Origin: a virus | Lineage: Duplodnaviria; Heunggongvirae; Uroviricota; Caudoviricetes | DNA: 34,271 nucleotides | Reading direction: 5' to 3' (one strand) | Virus record (IMG/VR): IMGVR_UViG_2734482775_000003 | Location: 1 to 34,271 of that record | In this document: positions 1 to 34,271 of the stretch, in pieces | How the letters are laid out: each line of letters opens with the position of its first letter | Numbering within the stretch: position 1 is the stretch's first letter | The notes under the pieces: generated by a model | What the model saw: only the letters and a program-made list of their open reading frames with translations | What the model was told of the DNA's origin: nothing | Database searches by the model: none | Made by a program: the position numbers and the translations under genes

Positions 1-1023
1 TTATGTGGATGAAATGTGGATACCTCCTTTTAACGGATTAAGTGAAATTGCATCCTGGAGGAAATCAGGAGCGAGGTGCGCATAGGTCATAGTTTGCTGG
101 ATCGTGGCGTGCCCCATAATTCGCTGGAGCGTAAGTATATTTCCTCCATTAATCATAAAGTGAGCTGCAAAGGTATGGCGTAGAACATGTACAGCCTGCC
201 CTTTCGGTAGGTCAGGCTTAACACTGCGAAGCACCTTGCGATATTCCTCATAATTGACGTCAAACAAAAGGCCGGATTTCTTTGTTTTGATCTCACTAAC
301 AACTTCATCAGAGACAGGAATAATTCGAACTTTTCCGTTTTTAGTTTTGTTAAACGTCACGCGGTTATTGATGATGTGTTCCGCGCGCAGATTTTTCGCT
401 TCTCCCCATCTCGCACCAGTACTGAGACAAAGTAGCGTAATCCGCCGGGCATCACCGCTTACTGCATCCAGTAATTTGGCGATTTCTTCCGTGGTGAGAT
501 ACGTCATTTCGGGTGATTTTCGTTTCAAAGAGGGGAGGGCGCGGAGCGGATTTTCTCCGTGAAATTCCCCGGCATTTGCCAGGAGTGTAAACATTCCTCC
601 GAGATCCGACTCATCACGCCGAACAGTAGACTCTTTTACTCCCAAGGATAAACGGGAGCTTCGATAAGCGGCCATGAAACGAGCATTAATCTGGCTAACC
701 CTTGGATCATTCATTTCTTTGATGATTTTTTTCAACCTGGTTAGAACGCCGTTAGCATATGGCTTATTGCGTCCACCCAATTCCCACCATAACGGAAGCA
801 GATCTGAGAGATGACGTTGCTCTGTTGGCTTTTCAAGCCATTCCTTATCGTGCATGTGGCTGAGAACATAACGCTCAAAGGCCACTGCATCTGCCTTTTT
901 CTTAAAAATCCGCTGAATCCGACGTCCACTTCGGCCACGCGGTCTAACATCCACTTTATACCGTCCACCATCGAGCGCTTTAATTGCCATTGGCAAGCCC
1001 TCCGGTGAAACGAGGAAAGACAT
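1..1023 (-). CDS. int: Tyrosine integrase, P2 Int-like; stop codon is the first three bases of the window
   Basis: 340-aa ORF with C-terminal catalytic-region motifs typical of phage integrases (HVLRHTFA...H...GH...Y); sits downstream of the repressor gene on the same strand, as in P2. Confidence 0.9.
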   Translation of the reverse strand: MSFLVSPEGLPMAIKALDGGRYKVDVRPRGRSGRRIQRIFKKKADAVAFERYVLSHMHDKEWLEKPTEQRHLSDLLPLWWELGGRNKPYANGVLTRLKKIIKEMNDPRVSQINARFMAAYRSSRLSLGVKESTVRRDESDLGGMFTLLANAGEFHGENPLRALPSLKRKSPEMTYLTTEEIAKLLDAVSGDARRITLLCLSTGARWGEAKNLRAEHIINNRVTFNKTKNGKVRIIPVSDEVVSEIKTKKSGLLFDVNYEEYRKVLRSVKPDLPKGQAVHVLRHTFAAHFMINGGNILTLQRIMGHATIQQTMTYAHLAPDFLQDAISLNPLKGGIHISST

Positions 1024-1056
1024 TTCCAGTTTGTAAAACGTAAGAATAATAAAGGG

Positions 1057-1359
1057 TTAACCAATTTTCCTTTCGGATGGGGGTAAGTCCGTTGGCTCTT
1101 GCCCATAGTGTGCGAGAGCCGGAGCTATCTGCCCGGATTCAGGCGCAATTTTTCCAGTCATAAACCACAACGCATATTTCTCAAATCTGGGGTTGTTTAG
1201 TATTTGCTCAATTACTTCAGCATTAGGGATAGTTTTACCGCTTTCATATCTCCACAGAGCATCACGGTTTAAACCAAGCATTTTTGCTGTATCCGGGAGG
1301 CTAGTAAGTCTCTCGCTTTCACGCATGATTTTTATGCGCTCTCCAATAGTCATACGCAT
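1057..1359 (-). CDS. C: Immunity repressor, P2 C-like
   Basis: Translation contains WFMTGKIAPESGQIAPALAHYGQ, matching the P2 C repressor as I recall it; start placed at the ATG (MRMTIGERIKIM) preceded by GGAG, rather than the track's upstream TTG. Confidence 0.85.
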   Translation of the reverse strand: MRMTIGERIKIMRESERLTSLPDTAKMLGLNRDALWRYESGKTIPNAEVIEQILNNPRFEKYALWFMTGKIAPESGQIAPALAHYGQEPTDLPPSERKIG

Positions 1360-1454
1360 GTTGCAATTCTCCAACGTCTGTATTAATGTTTATACAAATG
1401 AGTTTGATTTGGGGCATCCGTCGCAAGAAATACCCCAAACAGGGAGATTATCAC
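1360..1454. promoter_or_regulatory. Divergent C / early-operon promoter-operator region
   Basis: Intergenic stretch between divergent repressor and first early gene; contains inverted repeat TTTGGGG-N18-CCCCAAA and AT-rich -10-like hexamers. Confidence 0.45.
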
Positions 1455-1781
1455 ATGAATGAAGAACTATTGAGGGCATTGTTTAAGATCCCAGACCCCA
1501 TCACCGTCGATGAATTTGCCCGCCGCACGGGCAAGACCGAATCAGCCGTAAGAAAGTTGGTGGAACGTCGGCTCATCCCTCTGGCTACTGAGCGTGAAGT
1601 TTTAGGCGAGGAAGGAAGTTCACGCCGCCTCCTCATCTTATGGAACGAGTGGCTCGAAATGGTCTATGACGCAACGAAACAGCTTCCTCCTGAGCGTAAA
1701 GATTGGCGCAACCACTGGCTTAATAAAGCTAAGAAGCTGGCGGAAGATTTGGGATTAGGCTTTCTTAATTTTGCTGCATGA
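1455..1781 (+). CDS. First early-operon gene; Cox/Apl-like small DNA-binding regulator (positional call)
   Basis: Good RBS (AGGGAG) before ATG at 1455; first gene divergent from the repressor, the position Cox/Apl occupies in P2/186; sequence similarity to P2 Cox not evident by eye. Confidence 0.4.
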   Translation: MNEELLRALFKIPDPITVDEFARRTGKTESAVRKLVERRLIPLATEREVLGEEGSSRRLLILWNEWLEMVYDATKQLPPERKDWRNHWLNKAKKLAEDLGLGFLNFAA

Positions 1782-1799
1782 GATGCAGGGAGTTTTGAT

Positions 1800-2141
1800 A
1801 TGAAACAGCAACGTAATTCACGCTTTCGTAATGGTGCTGAACGCCACGCTAACCGTTTCGCTACCAGCGCATCACGCAGCAACATCCGCTACAGCCTGAG
1901 TGATACACACGCAACGCCGGATGGCTACCCAGTAAAACAAATCGGCGAGCATGCCTGGCTGATTGAGAAAGCTGGAATCGTGGTCCGCAAATGTCCACGC
2001 AATCCGTTTACCGGAAACCGCATTTTTGCATTGAGCTGCGGCGACAATCAGTTCGGGCAGGATTTCACATTATACGAAGCACTACGCACGGTTGATCGTC
2101 TGCTTCGCGGGCAAAGTTTTATTAAACAGGCTGATTTATAA
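1800..2141 (+). CDS. Hypothetical early protein
   Basis: 113-aa ORF in the early operon, same strand, compact spacing. Confidence 0.45.
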   Translation: MKQQRNSRFRNGAERHANRFATSASRSNIRYSLSDTHATPDGYPVKQIGEHAWLIEKAGIVVRKCPRNPFTGNRIFALSCGDNQFGQDFTLYEALRTVDRLLRGQSFIKQADL

Positions 2142-2151
2142 CAGGTGCTTT

Positions 2152-2430
2152 ATGACCAAAGAGCATGCACAAGGTGTATTTATCCGTTTTATTGATTTTC
2201 GCGGTGAACTGTTATTACGCGCATCAGCCATTGACGGAGTTGTTCCATCCGAAAAAAACGCAGCTACTTACGTTTATCTGAACGGTACGCGCTTGACTGT
2301 GGAGCTTCCGTACCAGACCGTGCGAGAAATCATTAGCGAAGCTGAAAAGGCACGTCAGGTTAATGGCGATGAACCATATATCGAAATTATTTGTATGGAT
2401 TCAGAAGCTGAAATTCAGAAAGCAGATTAA
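2152..2430 (+). CDS. Hypothetical early protein
   Basis: ATG at 2152 in frame with track ORF 2092..2430; ordinary composition. Confidence 0.45.
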   Translation: MTKEHAQGVFIRFIDFRGELLLRASAIDGVVPSEKNAATYVYLNGTRLTVELPYQTVREIISEAEKARQVNGDEPYIEIICMDSEAEIQKAD

Positions 2431-2441
2431 AGGGCGTTGCG

Positions 2442-2684
2442 ATGGGCAAAGAATATAAAACTCTCATTAACAAAGCACTTGAGCGTTTTTATTTTCGCTT
2501 AAGTGCATCAGGCGCTCATGCTGAACGTGCAGCCCGTGACTCATTGACCAGGGCAATCCGGAGTCTGTATGACGTGGCTTTTTACGCTGATGATCTGGAT
2601 GCACTTAACGAACTTTCCGAGCTGATCTGTGCCGCAGAATGCGGGGAACATATTGAACCGTATAAGCTGGGGAATATCGCATGA
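2442..2684 (+). CDS. Hypothetical early protein
   Basis: 80-aa ORF, compact operon spacing. Confidence 0.45.
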   Translation: MGKEYKTLINKALERFYFRLSASGAHAERAARDSLTRAIRSLYDVAFYADDLDALNELSELICAAECGEHIEPYKLGNIA

Positions 2685-2818
2685 GTATATTTATCTCATG
2701 GCTTGTTCTGATTATTTCGGTGGCCTGCGCTATTGGAATTATGCGAATTATTCATTCAGTAAAAAAGATTGAACGTTTTTCACTGGTGAATAACGATACA
2801 AATAAAACATCAAATTAA
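2681..2818 (+). CDS. Possible small single-pass membrane protein (45 aa)
   Basis: ATG overlaps the upstream stop (ATGA); hydrophobic core LVLIISVACAIGIM; below the ORF-track size cut-off. Confidence 0.3.
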   Translation: MSIFISWLVLIISVACAIGIMRIIHSVKKIERFSLVNNDTNKTSN

Positions 2819-2886
2819 ATAAGAAAACGAGAAAACCATCCGTATTAACGGAGGTATTCGCACACGCAAATAACGGAGATACAAAA

Positions 2887-3297
2887 ATGCACGCAAAAGA
2901 AGAAGGTATCATCAGAGCACTGAAAGAAATTTCAAAGACAGAAAACGTAGTAGCGAAAAAAGCCATAGCAAATAATCATATGGACGTCGCAACCCACACA
3001 CTGATAGTCGCAAGAGTCACGGCAGAAGCAGCCGAAATTATCGCAAAACAGGATGCTGAACTGGCGGTTCTCAGAACACAACCCGTCACCGGACTGGATT
3101 TGTCTAACACCGGACGCCTTATTTACACAATTGGCTCGGAGCTACAGCGATACACCATTATCGCCGGGTTACAGGATAAATACCTGATCACTCCTCACCC
3201 CATAAGGGAATCAGAAATTCTGACAAATCTCCGCCTGATAGAGCGCTCTCAAGTCGCATTCATTGATGACGCACAGTGCACCGTATTTAACGCATAG
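2887..3297 (+). CDS. Hypothetical early protein
   Basis: 136-aa ORF with a purine-rich RBS upstream. Confidence 0.5.
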   Translation: MHAKEEGIIRALKEISKTENVVAKKAIANNHMDVATHTLIVARVTAEAAEIIAKQDAELAVLRTQPVTGLDLSNTGRLIYTIGSELQRYTIIAGLQDKYLITPHPIRESEILTNLRLIERSQVAFIDDAQCTVFNA

Positions 3298-3320
3298 GGT
3301 TACTGGACAAAGGGGGCGCA

Positions 3321-3524
3321 ATGGCAATTAAGCATTTTCCCGTCGTTCGCTTTACCTCCAGAGGGCGCGAATACGAGGTCGACGAACGCCTGATTACCAC
3401 TATCGACAAACATCGTTCGGAAAAGGATGCACACCACATCTACCTCACTGACGGCACTTACTTCTGCGCCACTAATGTGGCGCGGGTAAACCTTATCCGA
3501 CAGGTACAGGAGCAGCGTAAATGA
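3321..3524 (+). CDS. Hypothetical early protein
   Basis: 67-aa ORF; start/stop coupled to the next gene. Confidence 0.45.
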   Translation: MAIKHFPVVRFTSRGREYEVDERLITTIDKHRSEKDAHHIYLTDGTYFCATNVARVNLIRQVQEQRK

Positions 3525-3739
3525 GCAGAAGGCGAATCACACGCAGGCATCGCCGCACACACATGAATTCCTTACCGACGCTGAAAGAACTCATTCAACA
3601 CGAGATCGCTGATTTCTGCGCACCGCTGGGGTCGCCTGGTGAACCGGAAACACCAGAAGCGATGCAGCGCGAACTCATGATGCGCATCGATAACGTTTTT
3701 GACTTTTTCCTGAATAACAAAAGAGAGCAATCAACATGA
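3521..3739 (+). CDS. Hypothetical early protein
   Basis: ATG overlaps the upstream stop and the downstream start (ATGA couplings). Confidence 0.4.
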   Translation: MSRRRITRRHRRTHMNSLPTLKELIQHEIADFCAPLGSPGEPETPEAMQRELMMRIDNVFDFFLNNKREQST

Positions 3740-3939
3740 ACAAAAAGACCTGGTTTCGCGCATACATGTGGGCGCTGGTATGCGTCCTCGTCTCTTTCAT
3801 TCTGTATGCAGGACTACTCCCCCGAATGATTTCATCAGACAGCTCCTTCCTGGTATTGCTGGGCATTTTCATTGCCATGCTGTACCCGGCAGGCGTTGTT
3901 CGCCTTTTCAGTAAGTACATCAAGGAAATCAAGCAATGA
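3736..3939 (+). CDS. Small two-helix membrane protein
   Basis: 67 aa with two hydrophobic stretches (WALVCVLVSFILYAGLL and FLVLLGIFIAMLYPAGVV); translationally coupled to the SPFH gene. Confidence 0.55.
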   Translation: MNKKTWFRAYMWALVCVLVSFILYAGLLPRMISSDSSFLVLLGIFIAMLYPAGVVRLFSKYIKEIKQ

Positions 3940-4766
3940 AGAAATTCAAACTCTTTCAGATTCTCCCGCTTTTTGCCGCCATCCTGCTGGTTGGTTGCGA
4001 TCGCGTTGAGCCAGGTAATGTGGGAATCAAAGTCAACAAACTGGGCGACGACAAAGGCGTCGGCGAAGTAGTTGGCGTTGGCCGCTACTGGACAGGCTGG
4101 AATACAGAGGTTTACATCTTCCCGACTTTCAAACAAATGAAGACTTACGATGAGCCGTTCAACTTCCAGATGAGTGACGGCACAACCATCGGCTATCACA
4201 TCGGCGTGGCCTACAAAGTTGATCCATCCAAAGTTACCACGGTGTTTCAGACCTACCGCAAAGGCGTGGACGACATTACCGACACTGACCTGCGCCAGAA
4301 GATCGCCGACGCACTCAACCGACTGGCCAGCAAAATGACCACCGATAAATTCATCGACGGTGGCAAGTCTGAACTGCTGGATTCAGCACTTAAAGATATT
4401 CAGGCAGAAATGACACCCATCGGCATTCAGGTAATGAGCCTCTCTTATGTCGGTAAACCGGAATATCCGCCAACCGTTATCGACAGCATTAACGCCAAAG
4501 TCACGGCAAACCAGAAAACCCTGCAACGCGAACAGGAAGTAAAACAGCGCGAAGCAGAAGCCAACATGTTGCGCGCAGAAGCTGCCGGACAGGCTGATGC
4601 CATTCGCACAAAAGCCCAGGCTGAAGCCGACGCCATTCGTTTACGCGGCGAAGCTCTGCGCCAGAATCCCGGCGTTATGGAGCTGGAAGCGATCAACAAA
4701 TGGAACGGCACGCTGCCGCAATACATGACCAGTAACACCGCTGTTCCGTTCGTTCCCGTGAAGTAA
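3936..4766 (+). CDS. SPFH/band-7 (stomatin/prohibitin/HflKC-like) lipoprotein
   Basis: Lipoprotein signal with lipobox LLVGC; central SPFH-like domain followed by an Ala/Glu/Gln-rich coiled-coil (QREAEANMLRAEAAGQADAIRTKAQAEADAIRLRGEA), the usual architecture of bacterial band-7 proteins. Confidence 0.7.
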   Translation: MKKFKLFQILPLFAAILLVGCDRVEPGNVGIKVNKLGDDKGVGEVVGVGRYWTGWNTEVYIFPTFKQMKTYDEPFNFQMSDGTTIGYHIGVAYKVDPSKVTTVFQTYRKGVDDITDTDLRQKIADALNRLASKMTTDKFIDGGKSELLDSALKDIQAEMTPIGIQVMSLSYVGKPEYPPTVIDSINAKVTANQKTLQREQEVKQREAEANMLRAEAAGQADAIRTKAQAEADAIRLRGEALRQNPGVMELEAINKWNGTLPQYMTSNTAVPFVPVK

Positions 4767-4928
4767 TGACACCCGGCCAGTGCAAACCGCTGGCCGGAGC
4801 AGTATCAGGATTTTTTAGTATGCCGTTCTCACAAAAAAACCGCTTGCCATGCCGCAATCAGTCAGGTTACATTTTCGCTGCACCTCATAAAACGGGTGCC
4901 GGGTTTCGCAGCCTGCTGACTACAAGAG

Positions 4929-4958
4929 CGCACAACCGCGCCAGCGGTTTTTTTGTGC
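4929..4958 (+). terminator. Putative intrinsic terminator inside the early region
   Basis: GC hairpin CCGC-GCCA-GCGG followed by a T7 run, flanked by CGCACAA / TTGTGCG. Confidence 0.4.
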
Positions 4959-5133
4959 GTACTGTATTGCCACGTTTTTTTCGCGTCAGAATTATGGCGG
5001 GGCGTACGGGGCCGACTTCGGTCGGGCCGGGATCTCTTGTAGCCGGTACTGCGAACCTCGTACGTCTCGCCACCCACAGTTTCGCAGCTCTGGATGGTGA
5101 GCTTTCACAACTTACTACAAGAGGCCACATATC

Positions 5134-5364
5134 ATGGCAAACCGCAAACAGCACCGCGCTATCGCGGAGCGTCGTCACATCCAGACTGAAATCAACCGCA
5201 GACTTTCCCGCGCATTCCGCGTCGCTAAAATCATGCACATCAATATGCTGCATGAGCGTAGCTGCGAACTTTCAAACCTCTACTCATCCGCTGTTTTCAG
5301 TTATCTGGCGGATGATCTGCGCGAGCTTCAGCAGCTCATCCAGCAGCAAAACAAACTCCATTAA
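5134..5364 (+). CDS. Hypothetical Arg-rich small protein
   Basis: 76-aa ORF directly after the structured non-coding stretch. Confidence 0.4.
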   Translation: MANRKQHRAIAERRHIQTEINRRLSRAFRVAKIMHINMLHERSCELSNLYSSAVFSYLADDLRELQQLIQQQNKLH

Positions 5365-5436
5365 TTCCTGTTCCGGGCCTTTCCTGCACCTTGCGGCGGG
5401 AGGCCTTCGCACATCTGTAACCAGAGGATTGCCGCA

Positions 5437-5802
5437 ATGATTCTCGCCAACGACTTTCTTGAATACCTGCTCAACACAGAGCGTGATCTTGCCGTTCGCG
5501 TGCGTGAACGTTATGACATGTACCTGAAATCCCTGCCTGTACCGCAGCTCGCTGACGGAAAGATTGTTATTGATGGTCGCTACATGATTGACAGCCACGA
5601 GGGAAATTACAGGCTTTACCGCATTGAAGGTGGCACCCCGTCCGTTATTGGCATTTACCAGCGCCCATCCTCTGCAATCGTCGATGTGATTGCCGACAGC
5701 ATCCGCATCACACATCGCCATGCCGACACAGAAGACACCGTGCTGGAAATTCAGCGGCTGGCTACAGTCTGCCGCGACACCCTGAATGGCATGACGAAGT
5801 AA
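5437..5802 (+). CDS. Hypothetical protein immediately upstream of gpA
   Basis: 121-aa ORF, same strand, 6 bp before the gpA start. Confidence 0.5.
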   Translation: MILANDFLEYLLNTERDLAVRVRERYDMYLKSLPVPQLADGKIVIDGRYMIDSHEGNYRLYRIEGGTPSVIGIYQRPSSAIVDVIADSIRITHRHADTEDTVLEIQRLATVCRDTLNGMTK

Positions 5803-5808
5803 ATCACT

Positions 5809-25325: not shown

Positions 25326-25737
25326 GCCATTCAATATCTGGCGCACCGGAAGTATCGACCAGTTCCAGTGCGTCCAGATAATCCAGCCACAAATTATATT
25401 GCGCCAGTTCCTCACCTTTCAGGCGACCAATCGCCGCTTTACCAGGCCATTGCTTACTGTTTATGTATTCGTTGACCTGATTAATCAATTGCTGCTTTTC
25501 CAGTTCGGCTGCGGCAATTTGTTCCTCATGAGTTGGCGGTGGAATATCAATCCATGCAGGCATTCCGTCGATGACACCTCTGTATTTTCCTTCTGGTGCT
25601 TCCTTCATAAATTCGGCGGCAACAGTGTCGTCAATTTCGATTCCATCATCGGGCCATTCGCCGGATTCCTGATAAGCGATTTTAAGCTCCACAGGGAAAA
25701 ACGCATTTTTATCGGCACTGAAAATATATTTCTGCAT
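25297..25737 (-). CDS. Alternative tail fibre assembly protein (G'), silent orientation
   Basis: 146 aa on the opposite strand, convergent with and overlapping G; tail-fibre-assembly-like C-terminus (DTSGAPDIEWP, compare G: DTSTAPDVIWP). Confidence 0.7.
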   Translation of the reverse strand: MQKYIFSADKNAFFPVELKIAYQESGEWPDDGIEIDDTVAAEFMKEAPEGKYRGVIDGMPAWIDIPPPTHEEQIAAAELEKQQLINQVNEYINSKQWPGKAAIGRLKGEELAQYNLWLDYLDALELVDTSGAPDIEWPTPPAVQAR

Positions 25738-25739
25738 TT

Positions 25740-26096
25740 CTACCGTCCTATCGAAATATAACTGAATCTGTATTGCTGTGAGATATCACTGGTTGCCACA
25801 CGCCACGCTGAATTACTGATATGTTCAAAATTTACAGACAAAACCTGCGGGGCAGGATTCGACGGGTCTGACTGAACGGCATCAGACATAACACTGACTG
25901 AAACCATCGGCTGATTAGGGAATGGTATAGGGAAGTGTCCACTGATAAAGCGGGTCGTGTTTCCTGAAAAAGTGCCAAACTGAACAATATATCCACCTGG
26001 TAGCCTGAACCATCCCGAACCAGAAGCGAATGCTCCCATATCCGGTATCTGATTATCTCCTGTGCCCACATCCCTTTTCGCCGCTTCTCCCAAACC
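25740..26096 (-). CDS. Alternative tail-fibre C-terminal cassette (H' variable part); promoterless, expressed only after inversion
   Basis: Minus-strand reading frame continues through the right hix site encoding ...NVGLGEAAKRD..., in frame with H ...YLGLGE at the left site; track ORF 25740..26138 covers it. Confidence 0.65.
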   Translation of the reverse strand, partial: GLGEAAKRDVGTGDNQIPDMGAFASGSGWFRLPGGYIVQFGTFSGNTTRFISGHFPIPFPNQPMVSVSVMSDAVQSDPSNPAPQVLSVNFEHISNSAWRVATSDISQQYRFSYISIGR

Positions 26097-26109
26097 AACG
26101 TTTAAGAAA
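26084..26109. other. hix/gix-like recombination site (right)
   Basis: TTCTCCCAAACC-AA-CGTTTAAGAAAA; resembles Hin hixL TTCTTGAAAACCAAGGTTTTTGATAA as recalled. Confidence 0.7.
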
Positions 26110-26165
26110 ATGCAGAGATTACGGCTAACTGGCATCATCCCCGGTTTTTATTCAGGGGATCCATC

Positions 26166-26765
26166 ATGCTTATTGGCTATGTCCGCGTATCAACAAATGA
26201 CCAGAATACAGAATTGCAGCGTAACGCGCTGGAGTGCGCAGGATGTGAACTGATTTTTGAAGATAAAATCAGCGGAACGAAATCAGCCAGACCGGGATTG
26301 AAAAAACTGCTCAGAACGCTATCAGAAGGAGATACGCTGGTTGTCTGGAAGCTGGACAGACTGGGCAGAAGTATGAAACACCTGATCACGCTTATTGAGG
26401 AATTGCGGGAAAAAGGTGTTAATTTCCGTAGTCTGACGGACAGCATTGACACATCAACACCCATGGGGCGTTTCTTTTTTCACGTCATGGGAGCTTTAGC
26501 CGAAATGGAACGTGAATTAATTGTAGAGCGTACACTGGCCGGGCTGGCAGCAGCACGCGCACAAGGACGCATTGGCGGACGTCGCCCGAAGTTGACAAAA
26601 GAACAACACGAGCAAATAGCGAGGCTGATTAAAAACGGTCATGACAGGAAACAACTGGCGATCATTTACGACATCGGCATATCGACGATTTATCGTTATC
26701 ACCCTGTAGGCGATATACAGGCTGAAGAAACAACCAGGCAGATTCAGGAAAATGAAAACCGCTAA
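26166..26765 (+). CDS. Serine DNA invertase, Hin/Gin/Cin/Pin family
   Basis: N-terminus MLIGYVRVSTNDQNTELQRNALE with catalytic Ser; LDRLGRS motif; C-terminal HTH (GISTIYRY); 199 aa. Confidence 0.9.
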   Translation: MLIGYVRVSTNDQNTELQRNALECAGCELIFEDKISGTKSARPGLKKLLRTLSEGDTLVVWKLDRLGRSMKHLITLIEELREKGVNFRSLTDSIDTSTPMGRFFFHVMGALAEMERELIVERTLAGLAAARAQGRIGGRRPKLTKEQHEQIARLIKNGHDRKQLAIIYDIGISTIYRYHPVGDIQAEETTRQIQENENR

Positions 26766-26791
26766 TCTGACCATTAGCGGTTTTGCGTTAA

Positions 26792-27286
26792 TCAAAACAG
26801 CCCTTTAACGGAGCTGGCCGCGCTGTTAAGGGATGATGTGACCTTATCTTTGAAGCCGGACAGCATATCACTGAACGATGAGGATTGCAGGCGCTCCCGC
26901 AAATCCTCATCACAGCGTTCAAGAGTCAGTGAAAATTCTATCTTTTTCGCCTTACCGTAGCGATCAAACTCGGAGCGGGTCGTATTCGTTTCAGTCAGTA
27001 CATACATGCCGTAAATCTGTCCGACGCCATCAATCAGAGGCCAGGGGCGTCCTGTATACGCCTGCGTGGTCAGCAGCGACAGCGACACTTCGCCACCTGT
27101 GATTTCAGGATAAAGCACACCAGAAAGCACGATGCGATCATCGCCTGCCCCGATATACTGCCAGCTTGCTGAACGGTTAACGCGTTCATTTTTCACATGC
27201 CGCCAGCTTTTATTTTGCTGTAACTGCTGATGCGGCAATGTGCGCAGCTCAAAAACAAACATGCCGTAGATCATCATCATGGCCAT
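26792..27286 (-). CDS. U: Tail protein, P2 gpU family
   Basis: 164 aa starting MAMMMIYGMFVFELRTLPHQ, the characteristic gpU N-terminus. Confidence 0.8.
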   Translation of the reverse strand: MAMMMIYGMFVFELRTLPHQQLQQNKSWRHVKNERVNRSASWQYIGAGDDRIVLSGVLYPEITGGEVSLSLLTTQAYTGRPWPLIDGVGQIYGMYVLTETNTTRSEFDRYGKAKKIEFSLTLERCDEDLRERLQSSSFSDMLSGFKDKVTSSLNSAASSVKGLF

Positions 27287-27292
27287 GACTCC

Positions 27293-30109
27293 TCAATCTT
27301 TATCGTAAAAACTGCCACGTCCGGCACGGTCGCGTCGTTCCAATTCTGCCCTGACCATTTCACCGACCAGTTTCGCCAGTTCGCGGGGATTCTGCGTAAC
27401 AACGTTATGCAGATGAACATGAATTTCACCGCCAAATCCGGAGACAGCAGGCTCCCGATTACGGGAAGCTGCAGGAACTGATGCCACTGGCGATCGTATG
27501 GCCTCCGCCACCGGGCGGGAGCTGGCCGCAACAACAGGGACCAGCGCCGGAGGCAGAGGAGTCGGGACCACGGGTGTGATGTTGATTGCGGAAGCAGGCT
27601 TACTGACCTGCGCAATCTTCCGCTCCTGCCACTCCCCACGAACGGCAAGTGCGCGGGGCAGGTTCTTAAAGACAATATCGCCGGGGCCAATACGTTTTTT
27701 CGTCTCATCAACCAGCTTACCTGTGTTATCAGCAATTTTGCTGAGTCTGCGTAGCGTACCGGTATTGCTGTCTGTGAGCGGTTTGTTGTCTTTGGGTTTA
27801 TCACCTCCGGTGCCATTGCCATTTTCCACAGGCTTCGGCGGATTGATTTTCGCCAGGTCCCCCTGAAGCAAGGCAACCTTGTCCTGAAGAATGGCCGCAC
27901 GCTGTGCGTCTTCGATTTTCTTGCGCGCCCTTTCCGCTTCATCCGGAAGCACACCGAGCTTTTCAAGTATCCACGCCAGCGTATCCAGCAACATTTTTGC
28001 AGGTGTCAGAACAAGTTGTAACGCACCGCCAAGAACGTTACCGAATATCTCGCCAGCACTGGTACATTTATCCAGCGTTTCCTTGCTGGACTCCATCGGT
28101 GACAGCAGCGATTTAAACCAGTTAAACACCTGGCTGATCCCGCTTCCGATTACGTCAAAAACAGGGCCAAACCGTTCAAAGGTTTCGCGCAACGGGGTCA
28201 GCCTTTCCATAATCCCGCCGAACACCCCGGCAAAAAATGCCCTGATGGGATCCCAATATTTCCAGATAAGAATGGCAGCTCCGGCAAGCGCAGCCACGAT
28301 AAGACCAACCGGACTGAACAGCGCCCCGATAGCACCTCCCAGCAAAGAAACGGAACCCGTCACCATTCCCCATAGTGCTGGCAGGACCCTGACAGCATTC
28401 ATTGATCCGGTCAGGAGGGAAAAACCAAGACGCAGTTTTGCCAGCGGACCAGCAAGCACACCAATAGCCAGCGACAACGAGCCAACCGTTGCAGTCATTG
28501 CCAGCAACGCACCGCCTGCTATCAGTAGCTGGCGCGTCAGTGCGGGATGGGCCTGCGCCAGCGCCGTCACCTTTGATACCACACGCGTGAGCCACTGCGT
28601 GACAGAACGCAGCGGACCGTCAATCAGATCTGCAATGCGGATGCGCAACCCTTCCCATGCACTGCCGAGTGATTTCAGATCGCCGTCAAGGTTGTTGGCC
28701 ATAACCTTTGCTGTGCGTTCAGCCTCACCGCGCGCGCCTTCAAGTTCTTTTCTCAGTTTGGGTAAGGACCCGTCACCCGCTGCATCAACGAGCGCCATAA
28801 ACGATGTGAAAGCCTCTTCCCCGGCGATGTCCTTAAAGAAGGATACCCGGTCAACTTCCCCGTATTTGCGGGTGGCTTTATAAAGGTCGGCCAGCACATC
28901 CTCCATCGGGCGCATTTTGCCGTTCGCGTCAGAAACTGCCACACCAAGCTCTTTCAGCGCCTCTGCTGCTGCCTTTGGCGGTGATGCCAGACGAGCCAGG
29001 CTGGCACGCATTGCCGTCCCGGCATCACTCCCTCTGATACCCATATTCGCCAGCACGCCCGCCATCGCTGCGGCCTGCTCCAGCGATATTCCCAGCTTAC
29101 CCGCCACCGGACCTGCATATTTCATGGTTTCGCCCAGTGCGCGAAGGTCAGTGTTGGTACGGGTAAACGCTGCGGTGAGTGTGTCACCAACCCGGTCCAT
29201 CTGGTCAGCAGAAAGGCCGAACTGCGTCAGGATATTTGAGCCAATATCCGCCGTCTCGCCGAGATCCATGCCGCCAGCCGTTGCCATGCTCAGCACGCCC
29301 GGAAGCGCAGCCTGAATGGCCTGCGGTGTGAAGCCAGCCATTGCAAGAAATGCCTGTCCACTGGCGGCATCGCCTGCGGTGAACTGCGTTTCAGAGCCAA
29401 GTTTTAACGCCTGCTCACGCAGCGCCTTAAACTGTGGGCTGTTCTGATCGATTCGCGTCAGTGCCTGAACGCGGGACATCTCTTTCCCGAACCCGATCGC
29501 AGGCTGCAAAAAACGCCCGGCAGCATAGCCGCCAGCCGCTGCCGCACCAATTGCCAGCGCACCACCTGTTTTCAGTTTTCCAGCAGTTTCCTGCGCGCGC
29601 GAATACCGCTCACGCGCCCGCGTTACACGCGCAAGCGTCTGCCGTTCGCGTTCAAGCTGGTTGTTGTACTGTTCGGTGCGTCTGATGGCCTGCTGGATGG
29701 TGTTATCGCTGCCTGTCAGGGAAATGCCGTGGCGTTTCAGCTCTCCGCCAAGCTCCCGCATTTTCTGAATTTCCCGTGTGCGCGATTCATTCAGGCGTTC
29801 AAGCCGGGTGCTTAACTGCTGCATCAGCTTTTGTTGTTTTTCGCTGAGCACTGTACCCGTGCGTTGTAACTGATTAAGGGCGTTAAGCTGGCGTCGTGCT
29901 TTCACGATGCTCGCATCCGCTTTACTGACAGCGTCACGGGCGCGCTCAAATGAACGCGCCTGACGCTCGAGATTTTTGATCGCCCCCTGCGTTCGCTGGA
30001 TGGAGTCACCAAACTGCCCCATCAGGCGGCGGGCGTTTTCGGCAGGCCGGGTCAGTCTGTCAACGGCGCTGAAAGCGACCCGGATATCAAGAGTCTTCAT
30101 TGTCTGCAT
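27293..30109 (-). CDS. T: Tail tape measure protein, P2 gpT family
   Basis: About 940 aa, Ala/Gly-rich with multiple hydrophobic segments; start uncertain (ATG at 30109 or the track's GTG at 30136). Confidence 0.85.
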   Translation of the reverse strand: MQTMKTLDIRVAFSAVDRLTRPAENARRLMGQFGDSIQRTQGAIKNLERQARSFERARDAVSKADASIVKARRQLNALNQLQRTGTVLSEKQQKLMQQLSTRLERLNESRTREIQKMRELGGELKRHGISLTGSDNTIQQAIRRTEQYNNQLERERQTLARVTRARERYSRAQETAGKLKTGGALAIGAAAAGGYAAGRFLQPAIGFGKEMSRVQALTRIDQNSPQFKALREQALKLGSETQFTAGDAASGQAFLAMAGFTPQAIQAALPGVLSMATAGGMDLGETADIGSNILTQFGLSADQMDRVGDTLTAAFTRTNTDLRALGETMKYAGPVAGKLGISLEQAAAMAGVLANMGIRGSDAGTAMRASLARLASPPKAAAEALKELGVAVSDANGKMRPMEDVLADLYKATRKYGEVDRVSFFKDIAGEEAFTSFMALVDAAGDGSLPKLRKELEGARGEAERTAKVMANNLDGDLKSLGSAWEGLRIRIADLIDGPLRSVTQWLTRVVSKVTALAQAHPALTRQLLIAGGALLAMTATVGSLSLAIGVLAGPLAKLRLGFSLLTGSMNAVRVLPALWGMVTGSVSLLGGAIGALFSPVGLIVAALAGAAILIWKYWDPIRAFFAGVFGGIMERLTPLRETFERFGPVFDVIGSGISQVFNWFKSLLSPMESSKETLDKCTSAGEIFGNVLGGALQLVLTPAKMLLDTLAWILEKLGVLPDEAERARKKIEDAQRAAILQDKVALLQGDLAKINPPKPVENGNGTGGDKPKDNKPLTDSNTGTLRRLSKIADNTGKLVDETKKRIGPGDIVFKNLPRALAVRGEWQERKIAQVSKPASAINITPVVPTPLPPALVPVVAASSRPVAEAIRSPVASVPAASRNREPAVSGFGGEIHVHLHNVVTQNPRELAKLVGEMVRAELERRDRAGRGSFYDKD

Positions 30110-30308
30110 TCCCGCTGCGAAGTGCCGCCCGCTCACGCCAGCTAACCACTTCGCCGGGCGTCATCATGAAGATTTCGGCGGGCGACCAGTTAAAAATGGC
30201 GGCAATATCCGCCACCAGATCTTCGATGTGCTCAAAGCACACCAGGGTGATTACGCTGCCGTCTCCTGCACGCTCTTCGCGCCAGAGTCTGGCTCGCTCA
30301 TAAAATTT
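30087..30308 (-). CDS. E' extension reached by -1 programmed frameshift from gpE (E+E' fusion)
   Basis: ORF in the -1 frame overlapping the E 3' end; slippery heptamer A-AAT-TTT (minus strand, about 30302..30308) lies after the last -1-frame stop. Confidence 0.6.
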   Translation of the reverse strand, partial: KFYERARLWREERAGDGSVITLVCFEHIEDLVADIAAIFNWSPAEIFMMTPGEVVSWRERAALRSGNADNEDS

Positions 30309-30625
30309 ACAGCCACAGCGCACAACTGAATAAAATCGCGTGACGACATTTTTTTAATCATCACTTCATCCAGTCGTGGCGAGGTCACGCGAGGCAACAG
30401 CGTGAACATGGTATCCGCTTTCAGATTCAGCACATCAGACAGCGACAGACCACGCAGAGATCCAGCCTGCTCAATAGCCCCGGTAATTTCCACATACGTG
30501 ATTTTTTCGCCACCGCGCTCAATTGGTCGGGCCAGTTTTACGCCACGTTCGACAGCCATATCCTCACCTGCCGTCACATCATCCGCCACGGCGTTATTCC
30601 GGGTTTCAGTATTGATGTTTTGCAT
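30251..30625 (-). CDS. E: Tail assembly chaperone, P2 gpE family
   Basis: 124 aa; position between FII and T; motif GSLRGLSLSDVLNLKADTMFTLLPRV resembles P2 E. Confidence 0.75.
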   Translation of the reverse strand: MQNINTETRNNAVADDVTAGEDMAVERGVKLARPIERGGEKITYVEITGAIEQAGSLRGLSLSDVLNLKADTMFTLLPRVTSPRLDEVMIKKMSSRDFIQLCAVAVNFMSEPDSGAKSVQETAA

Positions 30626-30681
30626 CAGTTGTCTCCTTTTTCAGTCAGAGGCGACGCACTGCGCCGCCTGCATATTACTTA

Positions 30682-31194
30682 TCAGCCAAGCCCAAGCGCG
30701 GAACGGATGCGATCAGGCACGATGTCCTTGCCGTCCTTCCGGTAGATGTGGTTCAGCAGGTCGATTTCCCACAGCGGACGATCGTTAACGCTCAGCTTGT
30801 AGTAGGTGTTTTTGACAGCGTAAGTGTGTGATGTGGCTTCGCCCTGTTTGGCTTCCCCCATATCAATTTCCGTCACACGCCCGCGCATCTCGATTTCATA
30901 CAGATCACTTTCTGCATCGGTGTAGTATTCACCCGCAAAACGCAGCAACGTGCCGTCAATCGTGCCGCCATATTTAAGGAACAGCTCACGAACTGCGCCC
31001 CCCATGACAAAACTCGCATCAAGCGCAGAATCATCAAGACCGAGGTCGATACTCACCGCCCCCATCATGCCACCGCCACGATAGCTTTCAGTTTTGCGCG
31101 TCAGTTTAGGTGGAGTGACGGACGTCACCTTACCCACTTCGTTTTCACCATTCACAAACAGCGTAAAAAAGCGAAGATGTTTTGGTACAGCCAT
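30682..31194 (-). CDS. FII: Tail tube protein, P2 gpFII family
   Basis: 170 aa directly downstream of the sheath gene. Confidence 0.85.
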   Translation of the reverse strand: MAVPKHLRFFTLFVNGENEVGKVTSVTPPKLTRKTESYRGGGMMGAVSIDLGLDDSALDASFVMGGAVRELFLKYGGTIDGTLLRFAGEYYTDAESDLYEIEMRGRVTEIDMGEAKQGEATSHTYAVKNTYYKLSVNDRPLWEIDLLNHIYRKDGKDIVPDRIRSALGLG

Positions 31195-32378
31195 CAGACA
31201 CCTCCCAACACCGCAAATGCGGGATCAAAGTATTCATCAGTAAACGTCTGGTAAAGCTCCATATCTTCCAGCGGAGGAACAGGCGTATATTTGTAGCGAA
31301 TACGCACACGCCCCTGACGTAAATCCGTGGTGCTGTTATCCACCACGTCATACCAGCACGACGCGCCAATCAGTTTCCCGGCAGTAACCAGTGAATCCAG
31401 TTTTGCCCTGATGGCACTGATAACATCCTTCACGTTCGCAGGCGTCAGTGGACTGTCGATGGTTTCAAACTGCGCTTCCGCAATTGAATCAGCCAGTACC
31501 TGTGCGGTTCGGGTATACACCTCAAAGATGTAGGCGTTCGTTTCCGGTGTGCGGTTGCCCCAGAAGCGGAACCCGTTGCGACGAATAATGGTCGTGATTT
31601 CTTTGTTGTTAAGGCTGTTGGCATCGCTGTCTTCGGCCTGCAACGACCAGAACACATGCCGGGACATCCCCAGCACATTTTTAACCGGAACGTTGGACAG
31701 TGATTTGTGCCAGCCCTGCTCATGGTCAATGTACGCACGAAGGCCGCACGCATAAGCAGGCGCGGGGAACGTTTCGTTTTTGCCACTTTTCGGGTTGTAG
31801 GCGATGAAGTCCGGCCATAAGAGCATCACCTCACGTTCGTTGAATTTCTGGCGGTAGGTAATTGCCTCTGCCATCGTGTTACAGCCATGACATGAGGCAT
31901 ACACAAACGCGCGCAGCTTACCCGCAATCACGCACAGGGATTTTGTCACCGCCTCCGTGTCCAGCTCCGGCGCGGCCAGAATACGCGGACGGTATCCGAT
32001 GCTTTCATCCTGCTCTGCAACAAGCAGCGCATACATTCCCGTATAGCTGCCGTCATCCTCAGAACCACCGATAACCAGTTGATCCTGCGTCTTTCCGTCT
32101 TCTTCTTTGTGTTCAGCCACGCGAACGACGATCACCTTTGTGCTCACCTGGTCTGCGATGGCCTTAAGCGCACGATAAAGCGTCCCCGTTGTCCCGCATT
32201 TCCCCAGCACGTCATTGACGCGGGTCAGCAGTGTGGGCTTGTTCAGCGGGAACAGCTTCGCGTCCGCATCATCCGCCGTTGCCACGATACCGATAACGCT
32301 GGAATCAACATCGTTAATCGCTGTTACCAGGTCGGTATTTTCCGTAACACGGGCACCATGAAAACGAGTTTCACTCAT
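31194..32378 (-). CDS. FI: Tail sheath protein, P2 gpFI family
   Basis: 394 aa; first gene of the leftward tail operon. Confidence 0.9.
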   Translation of the reverse strand: MSETRFHGARVTENTDLVTAINDVDSSVIGIVATADDADAKLFPLNKPTLLTRVNDVLGKCGTTGTLYRALKAIADQVSTKVIVVRVAEHKEEDGKTQDQLVIGGSEDDGSYTGMYALLVAEQDESIGYRPRILAAPELDTEAVTKSLCVIAGKLRAFVYASCHGCNTMAEAITYRQKFNEREVMLLWPDFIAYNPKSGKNETFPAPAYACGLRAYIDHEQGWHKSLSNVPVKNVLGMSRHVFWSLQAEDSDANSLNNKEITTIIRRNGFRFWGNRTPETNAYIFEVYTRTAQVLADSIAEAQFETIDSPLTPANVKDVISAIRAKLDSLVTAGKLIGASCWYDVVDNSTTDLRQGRVRIRYKYTPVPPLEDMELYQTFTDEYFDPAFAVLGGV

Positions 32379-32535
32379 AGCTTCAGCCCCTTGTATCCGT
32401 TAAATGATTCGGCAACAATCATCACCCACCACGCGCGTAATCTCACCCCTGCGCCGTTCTCCCGCCACGGCGACAACAAAAAGCAGTAACCCCCTCCGCA
32501 CGCACATGCGACCATGCCGCACAGGGAGGGAACAG

Positions 32536-33636
32536 ATGACCGACACCACCATGCAATTGCTCAGTCAGGGCACAGACCCCGTGAAAATGCCGGATTTTGA
32601 TATTCTTGCGGAGGGTAAAGCGCTGTCAGGCGTGGCAGAGCGCCTGATGAGCCTGTCACTGACCGACAACCGGGGATTTGAGGCGGACCAGCTCACCATC
32701 ACGCTGGATGATGCGGATGGTCAGTTGCAGCTACCGCCACGGGGCGCGCGTCTGACGGTTCTCATTGGCTGGAAAGGGGAACCGCTGACAGAAAAAGGCA
32801 CTTACATTGTTGATGAAATCGCTCACGAAGGACCGCCGGACAGGCTGACTGTTTCAGCCAGAAGCGCAGATTTTCGGGATGAATTTAACGTTAAACGTGA
32901 GGTGTCCTGGCATGATGTGACCGTTGAGCGCGTGGTATCTGCCATCGCTCATCGGTACGGTCTGAAACCGCAAATCAGCGAAATGCTGATGGATATCGAA
33001 ATCGACCACGCCGACCAGACCGAAGAAAGCGACATGTCCTTCCTTACGCGCATGGCGGAAATGCTGGGCGCAATCACCACGGTAAAAAGCGGTAATCTGT
33101 TATTCATCATGCCAGGCGGTGGCGTGAACGCACTGGGCCAGCCGTTGCCATCGTTCGCCATCACACGCAGCAGCGGCGATCGCCATCAGTTCCGCATTGC
33201 TGACCGCGAAGCGTATACGGGGGTACGCGCTTACTGGCTTGATCTTAATTACGGGAAAAAGAAAAAAGTCAGCGTGAAACGCCGCAAACCGAAAAAAGAG
33301 AAAAGCAGCAGCCGTGAAGGTGATTATATGGAAGGCGCGGAAGGCAATGTGTTTGTATTACGCAAGACTTATCAGAACGAGCAGGCAGCAAGACGCGCAG
33401 CAGCGGCAAAGTGGCAGCAGCTACAACGCGGAGCCGCAGCGTTCTCCATCACACTGGCACGTGGACGCGCAGAACTCTACCCCGAAATGCATGGTGCGGT
33501 AACAGGATTTAAAAGCGAGATTGATAATCAGGACTGGATCATTGCAAAAGCCGAGCACACCATTGATAACAGCGGCTTTACCACGCAGCTTGAGCTTGAG
33601 GCAAAAATCCCGGAATGGATAGCAGAAACAGAGTGA
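32536..33636 (+). CDS. D: Tail protein / late control gene D family
   Basis: ATG at 32536 with AGGGAGGG RBS (the track's longer 32404 start was rejected); about 366 aa; precedes ogr as in P2. Confidence 0.85.
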   Translation: MTDTTMQLLSQGTDPVKMPDFDILAEGKALSGVAERLMSLSLTDNRGFEADQLTITLDDADGQLQLPPRGARLTVLIGWKGEPLTEKGTYIVDEIAHEGPPDRLTVSARSADFRDEFNVKREVSWHDVTVERVVSAIAHRYGLKPQISEMLMDIEIDHADQTEESDMSFLTRMAEMLGAITTVKSGNLLFIMPGGGVNALGQPLPSFAITRSSGDRHQFRIADREAYTGVRAYWLDLNYGKKKKVSVKRRKPKKEKSSSREGDYMEGAEGNVFVLRKTYQNEQAARRAAAAKWQQLQRGAAAFSITLARGRAELYPEMHGAVTGFKSEIDNQDWIIAKAEHTIDNSGFTTQLELEAKIPEWIAETE

Positions 33637-33678
33637 GCAACTTAGAATAGCGGCAGCACCACGTTAAGGGAGGTCGCT

Positions 33679-33939
33679 ATGTTCCGTTGTCCGCTTTGTG
33701 GCGCATCTGCCCGTATCCGCACCAGTCGTCCGGAAAATGATTCAAACACCGTGCGGCAAAAGTATTACCAGTGTAACAATCTGGAATGCGGCGTATGCTT
33801 CTCAACACTGGAAGCTTTCCATAAATTCACATCAAAACACGCCTCCGGCGTTCACTCTTCAGAAGGTATCCCGTGGCATGAGCTGCCAGCTTCACACAGG
33901 GGAAACAATCAGATGAGTTTGCCTTTATCTCAGAATTAA
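33679..33939 (+). CDS. ogr: Late transcription activator, Ogr/Delta zinc-finger family
   Basis: N-terminus MFRCPLCGASARIRTSR...YYQCNNLECGVCFSTLE; four-Cys zinc-finger pattern as in P2 Ogr (MFHCPLC...QCQNVNCSATF). Confidence 0.85.
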   Translation: MFRCPLCGASARIRTSRPENDSNTVRQKYYQCNNLECGVCFSTLEAFHKFTSKHASGVHSSEGIPWHELPASHRGNNQMSLPLSQN

Positions 33940-34130
33940 CAGGCAGAATTGCCGGAGTAACAAAAAAGCGATAGATTACGCGCGGGTGCCTTTCGGCTGA
34001 TGGTCGGAGGGAATACCCGAAGGCCAGATGTGGAAAGGCCCCGGAAAACATTTCTGTTTAACCGAGGCCCTAACATATCTACCTTAAGCAAGTGATAGGT
34101 TAGCGCCTCTCCAACAAAGGAGCAAGCGCT

Positions 34131-34271
34131 ATGTCGCAAAAATCGCTTACAGCCATCACATTCTGCGTGACGGTAATCCTCATCATCTGGATGCTGCACG
34201 GTTCGCTGTGCGAAATACGGATGAGCTTCTGGGGAGCGGAGTTTGCGGCGTTCTTACAGTGTAAGCAGTAA
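34131..34271 (+). CDS. Hok/Gef-family membrane toxin (type I toxin-antitoxin); stop codon is the last three bases of the window
   Basis: 46-aa ORF MSQKSLTAITFCVTVILIIWMLHGSLCEIRMSFWGAEFAAFLQCKQ: hydrophobic helix then SLCEIR...AAF signature of Hok proteins; not in the ORF track (below size cut-off). Confidence 0.7.
   Translation: MSQKSLTAITFCVTVILIIWMLHGSLCEIRMSFWGAEFAAFLQCKQ

Follow-up and report, generated by a model that had tools for sequence, protein, structure and literature searches.

An integrated P88-like prophage with an R1-type ParMRC cassette that most likely serves a transient circle

The viral DNA analysed here (34,271 nucleotides; this whole stretch is called the window) spans the int-to-hok portion of a prophage of 36.06 kb, inserted into an E. 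coli-type chromosome between pheL and raiA, at the terminator of raiA. The element is a P88-like phage (Xuanwuvirus, Peduoviridae) and belongs to a P2-type family that is very common in E. coli. It is integrated rather than a plasmid prophage, and we think, with moderate confidence, that its R1-type ParMRC most likely serves a transient extrachromosomal circle. A sequence-only reading of the window had instead proposed a possible phage-plasmid hybrid, and much of what follows bears on the choice between these two views.

Integration site, gene content and relation to P88

The whole window is found at 100% identity and without mismatches (aligned pieces 1-19667 and 17293-34271) on DARRBU010000026.1, a 73-kb chromosomal contig of assembly GCA_033870015.1. 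Along this contig the order is pheA-pheL, attL, prophage, attR, raiA-bamD-rluD-yfiH-clpB, and the sequence flanking the prophage is 97-98.6% identical to E. coli chromosomes. A 20-bp direct repeat, ACAAAAAACGCGCCCGAAGG, bounds 36,058 bp of the contig and also delimits relatives at the pheL/raiA site. In window coordinates its two copies lie at:

-112 to -93: attL, 93 bp left of the window
35946 to 35965: attR, 1.67 kb right of the window

Both att sites thus fall outside the window, which is less than the whole element. The sequence-only reading had correctly observed that the window starts and ends at gene boundaries (with the integrase stop codon and the hok stop codon, respectively) and that it contains no att core repeat; searching added flank for direct repeats, as it suggested, yields the two copies above. 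It had also held that the integrated and episomal states could not be told apart from the window. Because the source contig is public, they can be: chromosomal flanks and att repeats on the identical contig decide for integration. The exact integrase protein recurs in 14,392 blocks of a public collection, adjoining pheL-pheA in all eight of the places listed. When IMG/VR was scanned for the predicted attP junction, one 6.7-kb contig matched, which supports attP and is silent on plasmid state.

Outside the partition cassette, which is treated below, the window contains the following features:

1 to 990 (open reading frame to 1023), minus strand: tyrosine integrase, 329 aa (Pfam Int_N 5.6e-23, Phage_integrase 3.7e-17)
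1057 to 1359, minus strand: CI/C-type HTH immunity repressor (Pfam HTH_31, HTH_3; ATG start confirmed)
1455 to 1781, plus strand: Cox-type regulator/excisionase, first gene of the early operon (Phage_Cox 3.8e-06, slightly under the Pfam cut-off)
1800 to 5802, plus strand: early-operon accessory genes, including DUF4761, DUF4754 and others (Pfam, PHROGs)
3936 to 4766, plus strand: SPFH/Band_7 ORF (Pfam/PHROGs)
4820 to 5440, plus strand: Ash-like ORF (Pfam/PHROGs)
4880 to 4954, plus strand: isrK RNA (Rfam 66.7 bits, over the gathering score)
4990 to 5077, plus strand: C4 antisense RNA (Rfam 81.1 bits, over the gathering score)
5809 to 8631, plus strand: GpA, P2-type rolling-circle replication endonuclease, 940 aa (Phage_GPA 4e-129)
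10006 to 11813, plus strand: variable cargo between parR and the portal gene (ORFs 10006-10437, 10418-10702 and 11250-11813)
11828 to 24723: P2-type portal, terminase, scaffold, capsid, lysis, baseplate and tail-fibre genes (relatives' annotation and Pfam, identical contig)
24723 to 26765: invertible tail-fibre assembly segment (Caudo_TAP)
26166 to 26765: DNA invertase (Resolvase/HTH_7)
within 26792 to 33636, minus strand: tail genes U, T, E, tube and sheath (Pfam, identical contig)
32536 to 33636, plus strand: gpD (Pfam, identical contig)
33679 to 33939, plus strand: Ogr/Delta late-gene activator (Ogr_Delta)
33984 to 34141, plus strand: sok-family leader region (Rfam sok 47.9 bits, E 4.6e-09, against a gathering score of 59)
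34131 to 34271, plus strand: Hok toxin ORF (HOK_GEF 3.7e-07, 30.1 bits against a cut-off of 22)

The integrase/repressor module is complete, as had been read from the sequence, with integrase, HTH repressor and Cox all in place; relatives carry a counterpart of the 1455 to 1781 gene that is annotated as Cox family. The Hok toxin is likewise present, but it had been taken for a neighbour of the element and in fact lies inside the att-bounded prophage, since attR is further to the right; 3' of hok, still within the prophage, come TM2, Com and then a DNA methyltransferase. The cargo ORFs fall into PHROGs of unknown function, and cargo content varies among relatives. As regards the invertible segment, three isolates with an identical tape-measure protein do not agree in gene arrangement (L026 differs from L027 and L028), which fits inversion.

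Gene set and order are those of P2-type phages (int-C-cox-A ... Q P O N M L ... tail ... D ogr), as judged from Pfam on the identical contig and from the annotation of relatives. At the nucleotide level phages P88, vB_EcoM-569R5, PhiR44_2 and Shae_phiSM match the window at 95-97% identity, and for the full prophage against P88 the product of identity and coverage is about 0.73, above the 70% genus threshold, this being a one-directional, approximate figure and not a VIRIDIC value. P88 and its relatives, including the Citrobacter phage Shae_phiSM, have the same int-to-hok gene order (with 92-97% of nucleotides identical across some 76% of the prophage) and share the DNA invertase and hok; their par cassette likewise follows gene A, and their ParM is 98-99% identical to that of the window. 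They differ in the parR allele, in the cargo after parR and in the tail-fibre genes, and this prophage has the extra TM2/Com/methyltransferase genes at its right end. The integrases differ as well, with a 20-bp core at pheL/raiA in this prophage as opposed to a 14-bp core, GCCACCCGAAGGTG, in P88, a phage that was induced from the chromosome and whose attP has been defined (PMC5285337). The element is already known.

The partition cassette and its candidate centromere

Immediately downstream of gene A, and in part within it, lies the cassette:

8565 to 8679: candidate parC, two 42-nt direct repeats, 73 bp apart
8581 to 8600: palindrome 1, inside the 3' end of gene A
8654 to 8673: palindrome 2, intergenic
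8708 to 9667, plus strand: ParM, actin-like segregation ATPase, 319 aa (StbA_N 1e-81, ParM C-terminal domain 4e-68)
9672 to 9986, plus strand: ParR, ribbon-helix-helix adaptor, 104 aa (Plasmid_stab_B 4e-25), after a 4-bp gap

The actin-type partition system recognised by the sequence-only reading is thus confirmed in both its proteins, and it shows no sign of decay. ParM matches structures of plasmid R1 ParM over its full length (E 2e-91, 46% identity) and retains the nucleotide-binding motifs. The gene is intact in all eight sequences compared and is under strong purifying selection, its dN/dS of 0.08 being comparable to that of the portal (0.05) and terminase genes. The earlier reading had named clear chromosomal flanks with att repeats and chromosomal-level coverage, plus a non-functional ParMR, as findings that would speak against a hybrid; the flanks and repeats are there, but the dN/dS argues against loss of function. 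A scan of genome contigs for ParM returned three loci only, all close relatives. ParR belongs to the same Pfam family as pB171 ParR and matches the structure of that protein (2JD3) weakly. While parM is nearly invariant, parR is strongly allelic; its alleles conserve the N-terminus and the C-terminal tail and vary in the linker, a pattern that would fit a DNA-binding N-terminus and a ParM-binding tail.

Each of the two repeats of the candidate parC holds the palindrome ACGGGATT-N4-AATCCCGT, which has these two matches and no others in the whole window; none of 100 shuffles had two or more. The palindrome arms are conserved in the seven family members whose parM start was located, although a few arms carry point substitutions. 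Lying upstream of parM, the two palindromes look like a compact centromere and may be the sites to which ParR binds. The order parC-parM-parR is that of the type II ParMRC system of plasmid R1. The R1 centromere, though, is a multi-repeat one with ten iterons, whereas the candidate here consists of two palindromic sites, one of them inside gene A, and the window's cassette, unlike R1's, sits in an integrating phage with no clear promoter of its own found.

A simple promoter scan found no sigma-70-like promoter upstream of parM, and a terminator scan found no terminator-like site on the plus strand between gene A and parM; the first strong plus-strand terminator-like hairpin downstream is at 10737-10757. 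Since the cassette directly follows gene A with no intervening plus-strand terminator-like site, co-transcription with the early replication operon is probable. Together, parM, parR and the candidate parC appear to form a genuine segregation module of the R1 type (type II) that is part of the conserved backbone of the P88-like family, and the low dN/dS together with the two conserved centromere-like palindromes suggests that the cassette is probably functional.

Chromosomal distribution and the phage-plasmid question

Of 5426 complete E. coli genomes, 1303 (~24%) carry the par cassette; 1441 of its 1443 copies in them are chromosomal, in prophages that include those of O157:H7, UTI89 and ST131 lineages. 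The remaining two are on plasmid-labelled records of 129 kb and 439 kb, so that none of the 1443 copies is a phage-sized episome. PLSDB (72,556 plasmids) holds one phage-sized circular record, NZ_CP148288.1 (34,461 bp), a complete relative with a phage-only junction from int to methyltransferase. Other candidate episomes were set aside: a 26.8-kb 'plasmid' from Shigella proves to be a linear fragment riddled with IS1, and the 'bone infection' plasmid records look like assembly fragments.

The hybrid gene content that prompted the phage-plasmid proposal is real, integration and immunity genes, a type II partition cassette and hok all being present. The inference of a hybrid lifestyle is unsupported. 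Virion, packaging, lysis and partition genes are there, but a plasmid-type replication module is absent: Pfam, NCBIfam and PHROGs reveal no plasmid-type Rep among the early-region ORFs, leaving GpA as the sole replication protein found, and neither a theta-type Rep nor an iteron origin was found. With chromosomal flanks around this copy and the distribution described above, nothing indicates that the window's element lives as a plasmid.

One might still imagine a facultative phage-plasmid, usually integrated but also able to persist over generations as a low-copy circle (for example where attB is missing or occupied), with ParMRC partitioning the circle and hok/sok killing post-segregationally. 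The idea has been published for P88, which Pfeifer et al. (2021) placed among putative phage-plasmids and for which they suggested episomal and integrative states (PMC7969092). It draws further on the complete, selectively maintained partition cassette, on the presence of hok and on the circular relative deposited as a plasmid, as well as on phage D6, a circular plasmid prophage according to the literature, whose ParM is 47% identical to that of the window. The ParR of D6 is 30% identical, and the D6 parM is preceded by a multi-repeat region of 266 bp. Nonetheless, we consider a facultative phage-plasmid unlikely. The copy in the window is itself integrated, phage-sized episomes are missing from the complete E. 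coli genomes, and the solitary circular plasmid record would assemble alike from an excised or replicating circle. In P2, GpA replication is part of a repressor-controlled lytic programme. [quoted passage not shown] Compared with D6 and KS14, the window has an integrase and GpA as its only replication protein, and it is integrated.

Possible roles of ParMRC

Why, then, should an integrating phage keep a plasmid-type segregation cassette? We favour the scenario in which ParMRC most likely acts on a transient circle. ParR would bind the two palindromes of the candidate parC, and ParM filaments would move or separate circular phage genomes after infection, after excision or during GpA-driven rolling-circle replication. 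The benefit could be better replication or positioning, or that dividing cells do not lose the element, and hok/sok at the other end might penalise loss or serve as an abortive-infection defence.

This scenario has precedents in two other integrative elements. In SXT/R391 elements, srpMRC stabilises the excised, rolling-circle-replicating form, and the likeness to the window extends to integration, rolling-circle replication, ParM-type partition and a toxin-antitoxin system; yet these elements are ICEs rather than phages, SrpM is distant from R1 ParM, and srpM expression is coupled to int and to the SetCD activator (PMC4489591). The integrated Corynebacterium prophage CGP3 encodes, as the window does, an actin-like protein with a DNA-binding adaptor, and this AlpAC system is induced early and needed for efficient replication of circular phage DNA (PMC4446434). 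CGP3 differs in its Gram-positive host and in that AlpC represents a distinct actin-like family, whereas the window's proteins are of a close R1 ParM/ParR type. Our literature search turned up no study of what ParMR does in P2-like phages and no data on role or expression for P88-like ParMRC. Weighing against a role on transient circles are the two-site candidate parC, which contrasts with the multi-repeat centromeres of R1 and D6, the promoter scan upstream of parM, and the 34.5-kb circular 'plasmid' record of a relative.

A different possibility is that the cassette is expressed in the lysogen for some accessory purpose, ParR/parC or ParM hindering incoming plasmids or phages with related par systems (centromere incompatibility) or conferring another host benefit. 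The cassette borders the variable cargo region that separates gene A from the portal gene and that in P2 contains tin and old, and the allelic diversity of parR next to a nearly invariant parM could mean diversifying specificity. Moreover, prophages are enriched for hok, for which a role in defence has been discussed (10.1101/2025.08.07.668861). We nevertheless doubt this explanation: PADLOC gives no hit for ParM, ParR or the neighbouring cargo ORFs, and promoter evidence for expression in the lysogen is lacking. Across alleles, the DNA-binding N-terminus of ParR and the arms of the palindromes are for the most part conserved, so that ParR specificity is apparently not diversifying. That the cassette is a passively carried, non-functional relic of past recombination with a plasmid, as an undefined role and a candidate centromere of only two repeats might suggest, is already disfavoured and very improbable, given intact and constrained parM, its retained nucleotide-binding motifs and at least 1278 genomes that keep at least 80% of the cassette at 95-99% identity.

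Returning to the transient-circle reading, a bolder version, which we put forward as a long shot, would cast P88-like phages, which roughly a quarter of E. coli genomes contain, as the phage equivalent of SXT/R391 ICEs: their rolling-circle-replicating circles would be acted on by an actin segregation machine of the R1 type whose minimal, two-site centromere lies partly inside the replication gene, and, where no free attB is available, this might possibly permit stable plasmid lysogeny without a theta replicon.

The window is, then, an unremarkable integrated prophage from a genus already described; for this copy the question of lifestyle is settled. What makes it mildly interesting is that an intact plasmid-type ParMRC is kept under purifying selection in chromosomal prophages of about 24% of complete E. 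coli genomes.

Gene content and integration site

The window has the ORF layout and composition of a P2-type temperate phage, and the integrase/repressor module, actin-type partition genes and Hok named by the sequence-only reading are each confirmed by Pfam. No tRNA gene lies in the window, which, as that reading had it, ends at gene boundaries (the integrase stop codon on the left, the hok stop codon on the right).

Features in window coordinates (att cores located on contig DARRBU010000026.1)
-112..-93, attL core
1-990, minus strand, tyrosine integrase (Pfam; ORF open to 1023)
1057-1359, minus strand, CI/C-type HTH repressor (Pfam)
1455-1781, plus strand, Cox (Pfam, slightly under the cut-off)
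5809-8631, plus strand, GpA, P2 rolling-circle replication nuclease (Pfam, E 4e-129)
8708-9667, plus strand, ParM (Pfam StbA_N 1e-81, ParM C-terminal domain 4e-68)
9672-9986, plus strand, ParR (Pfam Plasmid_stab_B 4e-25)
34131-34271, plus strand, Hok (Pfam, 30 bits against a cut-off of 22)
35946..35965, attR core

Whether the element is integrated or episomal had been judged undecidable from the window. It is decided by DARRBU010000026.1 (73,089 bp; GCA_033870015.1), a contig found by exact-protein look-up that is the source of the window or an identical copy, matching it at 100.000% identity over 1-19667 and 17293-34271 (stretches L021 and L026, respectively). The order on this contig is pheA-pheL, attL core, int through hok, TM2 protein, Com, N6/N4 DNA methyltransferase, attR core and raiA-bamD-rluD-yfiH-clpB, and its flanks share 97-98.6% identity with E. 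coli chromosomes. In complete E. coli chromosomes, relatives whose integrase is the same (98.6% identity) likewise occupy the pheL-raiA interval, with the 20-bp direct repeat ACAAAAAACGCGCCCGAAGG on both sides; the att core overlaps the terminator hairpin of raiA. Core to core the prophage measures 36,058 bp, so that both cores lie beyond the window ends, in keeping with the earlier remark that none is visible inside, and the window is an internal slice. Hok, described as sitting next to the element, is indeed present but is encoded within the prophage, attR following only at 35946..35965. The prophage, flanked by chromosomal genes and att direct repeats, is a known element, found here integrated as is normal for it, and the phage-plasmid lifestyle suggested for it is unsupported for this copy and rare at best in the family.

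The window matches Escherichia phage P88, vB_EcoM-569R5, PhiR44_2 and Citrobacter phage Shae_phiSM at 95-97% identity over long stretches, broken by the usual mosaic gaps (early region, downstream of parR, tail fibres). For the full prophage, identity times coverage against P88 is ~0.73, a genus-level value that, judged by sequence, places it in Xuanwuvirus (Peduoviridae). Mitomycin C induced P88 from the chromosome of E. coli K88, in which it resided as a prophage, and its attP is defined (PMC5285337); PhiSM, a prophage of C. rodentium, is integrated and active (PMC6456863).

Several further observations concern the element and its relatives. The TM2-domain protein, Com zinc-ribbon regulator and methyltransferase occupy 34272-35945 (L026 4257-5830), an arrangement like Mu com/mom. 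At the same att site, another stretch (L015, 8152-11103) has a ~2.9 kb remnant between both cores that retains int, repressor and cox together with a fusion of two truncated genes, DUF4761 and methyltransferase; it arose from the prophage by deletion. An SPFH/Band_7 gene (3936-4766) shares ~92% DNA identity with a gene of Stx2-converting phages and phiP27, annotated there as serine protease or lipoprotein, which indicates exchange between P2-like and lambdoid phages. Mid early operon, upstream of gene A and parMR, isrK (66.7 bits) and C4 antisense RNA (81.1 bits), both above Rfam gathering, stand in tandem at 4880-5077 (plus strand) within the 5' part of a called Ash-like ORF (4820-5440), with promoter-like sites at 4844 and 4967 and a terminator-like hairpin at 4934-4949, resembling P1 immI / Gifsy-1 IsrK antirepressor control. 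Between parR and the portal gene (10006-11813), at a position equivalent to the P2 tin/old accessory region, lie three cargo ORFs (143, 94 and 187 aa) that vary among relatives, match only PHROGs of unknown function and matched no PADLOC model. The cargo of relatives differs: in one, a radical-SAM/HxsD cluster separates gpD from ogr (L035 2900-6297), and in another SopE lies in the tail-fibre region (L030 14456-15178). A DNA invertase (26166-26765) adjoins alternative tail-fibre and tail-fibre-assembly segments (24723-26765), whose orientation differs among isolates with identical tape-measure protein (L026, L027, L028) and so points to an active host-range switch; such an invertible switch has been reported for P88-like prophages. 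A contig labelled 'Vagococcus sp. WN89Y' (L006, NZ_JBQPOM010000071.1) holds a P88-like prophage with a 98%-identical ParM and is most likely enterobacterial contamination or a mislabelled assembly.

The cassette on chromosomes and plasmids

P88 was assigned by Pfeifer et al. to the VP882 community of putative phage-plasmids (PMC7969092), so that the hypothesis of the sequence-only reading was already published for the type phage. A facultative plasmid state is possible but would be rare, judging by the census and by the missing plasmid replicon. Queried with the parC-parM-parR segment (window 8560-9990), 1303 of 5426 complete E. coli genomes carry the cassette, always adjoining the replication endonuclease, at 1441 chromosomal places versus two on plasmid-labelled records. 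The latter are a 439-kb record and pCREC455-3 (129 kb), neither of them an episome of phage size; in pCREC455-3 a whole P88-like prophage is embedded in a larger replicon with other phage genes. That prophage (L008, NZ_CP183151.1, 100-34392) is complete and has the same integrase, the rest of the circular plasmid carries different phage tail and baseplate genes, and the stretch examined contains the right-hand att core alone; possibly, it is a prophage integrated into a phage-plasmid.

Among the 72,556 plasmids of PLSDB, this parM occurs in seven records only: large replicons, apparent assembly fragments, one linear Shigella fragment and one 34,461-bp circular record, NZ_CP148288.1, a complete relative. 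The int-to-methyltransferase junction of that record consists of nothing but phage DNA, as would be seen in either a plasmid or an excised, replicating circle. In a public collection the exact integrase is found in 14,392 blocks and the exact ParM in 227, and all 16 places among the matches listed are chromosomal.

A plasmid replicon is absent as well: no replication initiator besides GpA was detected among the early ORFs (Pfam, NCBIfam, PHROGs). The plasmid prophage KS14, with P2-type virion genes, has RepB and ParA (PMC3091744), whereas the window phage has GpA instead. Across 50,697 phage records, the phage-plasmid D6 is the only other one with this type of ParM (47% identity).

Integrity of the cassette and a candidate centromere

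The R1 ParM structures align along the whole of ParM (E 2e-91, 46% identity), in which the motifs for phosphate binding, catalysis and adenosine are preserved; the match of ParR to the pB171 ParR structure is weak. The 319 codons of parM are intact in all eight sequences compared, and its dN/dS of 0.08 (portal gene 0.05, terminase median 0.07) opposes the disfavoured view of the cassette as a dead relic.

parR is strongly allelic. Its ribbon-helix-helix N-terminus (RRISFYLKP...) and C-terminal tail (NIxxFFPE; last 8 residues) are conserved around a hypervariable linker with mosaic breakpoints at ~9724 and ~9817, and dN is ~0.4 and dS ~1.1 between alleles whose adjacent parM shares ~97% DNA identity. 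R1 ParR has a DNA-binding N-terminus and a ParM-binding tail, and the conservation seen here is the pattern expected of such a protein.

Two 42-nt direct repeats, spaced 73 bp apart, immediately precede parM. Each includes the palindrome ACGGGATT-N4-AATCCCGT, the first copy within the final codons of gene A and the second in the intergenic gap of 76 bp. The palindrome occurs only these two times in the whole window (0 of 100 shuffles reach two), and its arms, a few of them with point substitutions, are conserved among seven family members with a located parM start. We regard the pair as a candidate centromere and operator, with putative ParR sites. D6 differs in having a longer, multi-repeat region at the same place. 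GpA itself (940 aa) has its Pfam GPA domain confined to residues 179-503, leaving the C-terminal ~430 residues without a family match.

What the cassette may do

P2-type replication yields monomeric double-stranded circles that serve for packaging too. No plus-strand terminator-like site lies between gene A and parM, the first strong one downstream being a hairpin at 10737-10757, past two more small ORFs, and a scan for sigma-70-like promoters upstream of parM found none. On the simplest reading, parMR would be transcribed with the early, replication operon and be silent under immunity. Two precedents lead us to favour a role of ParMRC on the transient extrachromosomal circle rather than in stable plasmid lysogeny. 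In SXT/R391 ICEs, srpMRC, alongside a toxin-antitoxin, stabilises an excised circle that replicates by the rolling-circle mode (PMC4489591). In the integrated prophage CGP3, AlpAC is induced early, and efficient replication of the circular phage DNA depends on it (PMC4446434). On this view the hok/sok pair would be a loss-penalty or defence module; hok is enriched in prophages (10.1101/2025.08.07.668861), and a sok match just upstream of hok falls below the Rfam threshold.

It is also possible that the cassette serves competition and is expressed in the lysogen, as its position beside variable cargo might suggest; the lack of a PADLOC match and the conservation of the DNA-binding parts speak against this. 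In the literature searched, no work on what ParMR does in a P2-like phage turned up, and the one point of remaining interest is the function that a widespread, conserved ParMRC cassette may have in an integrating phage.
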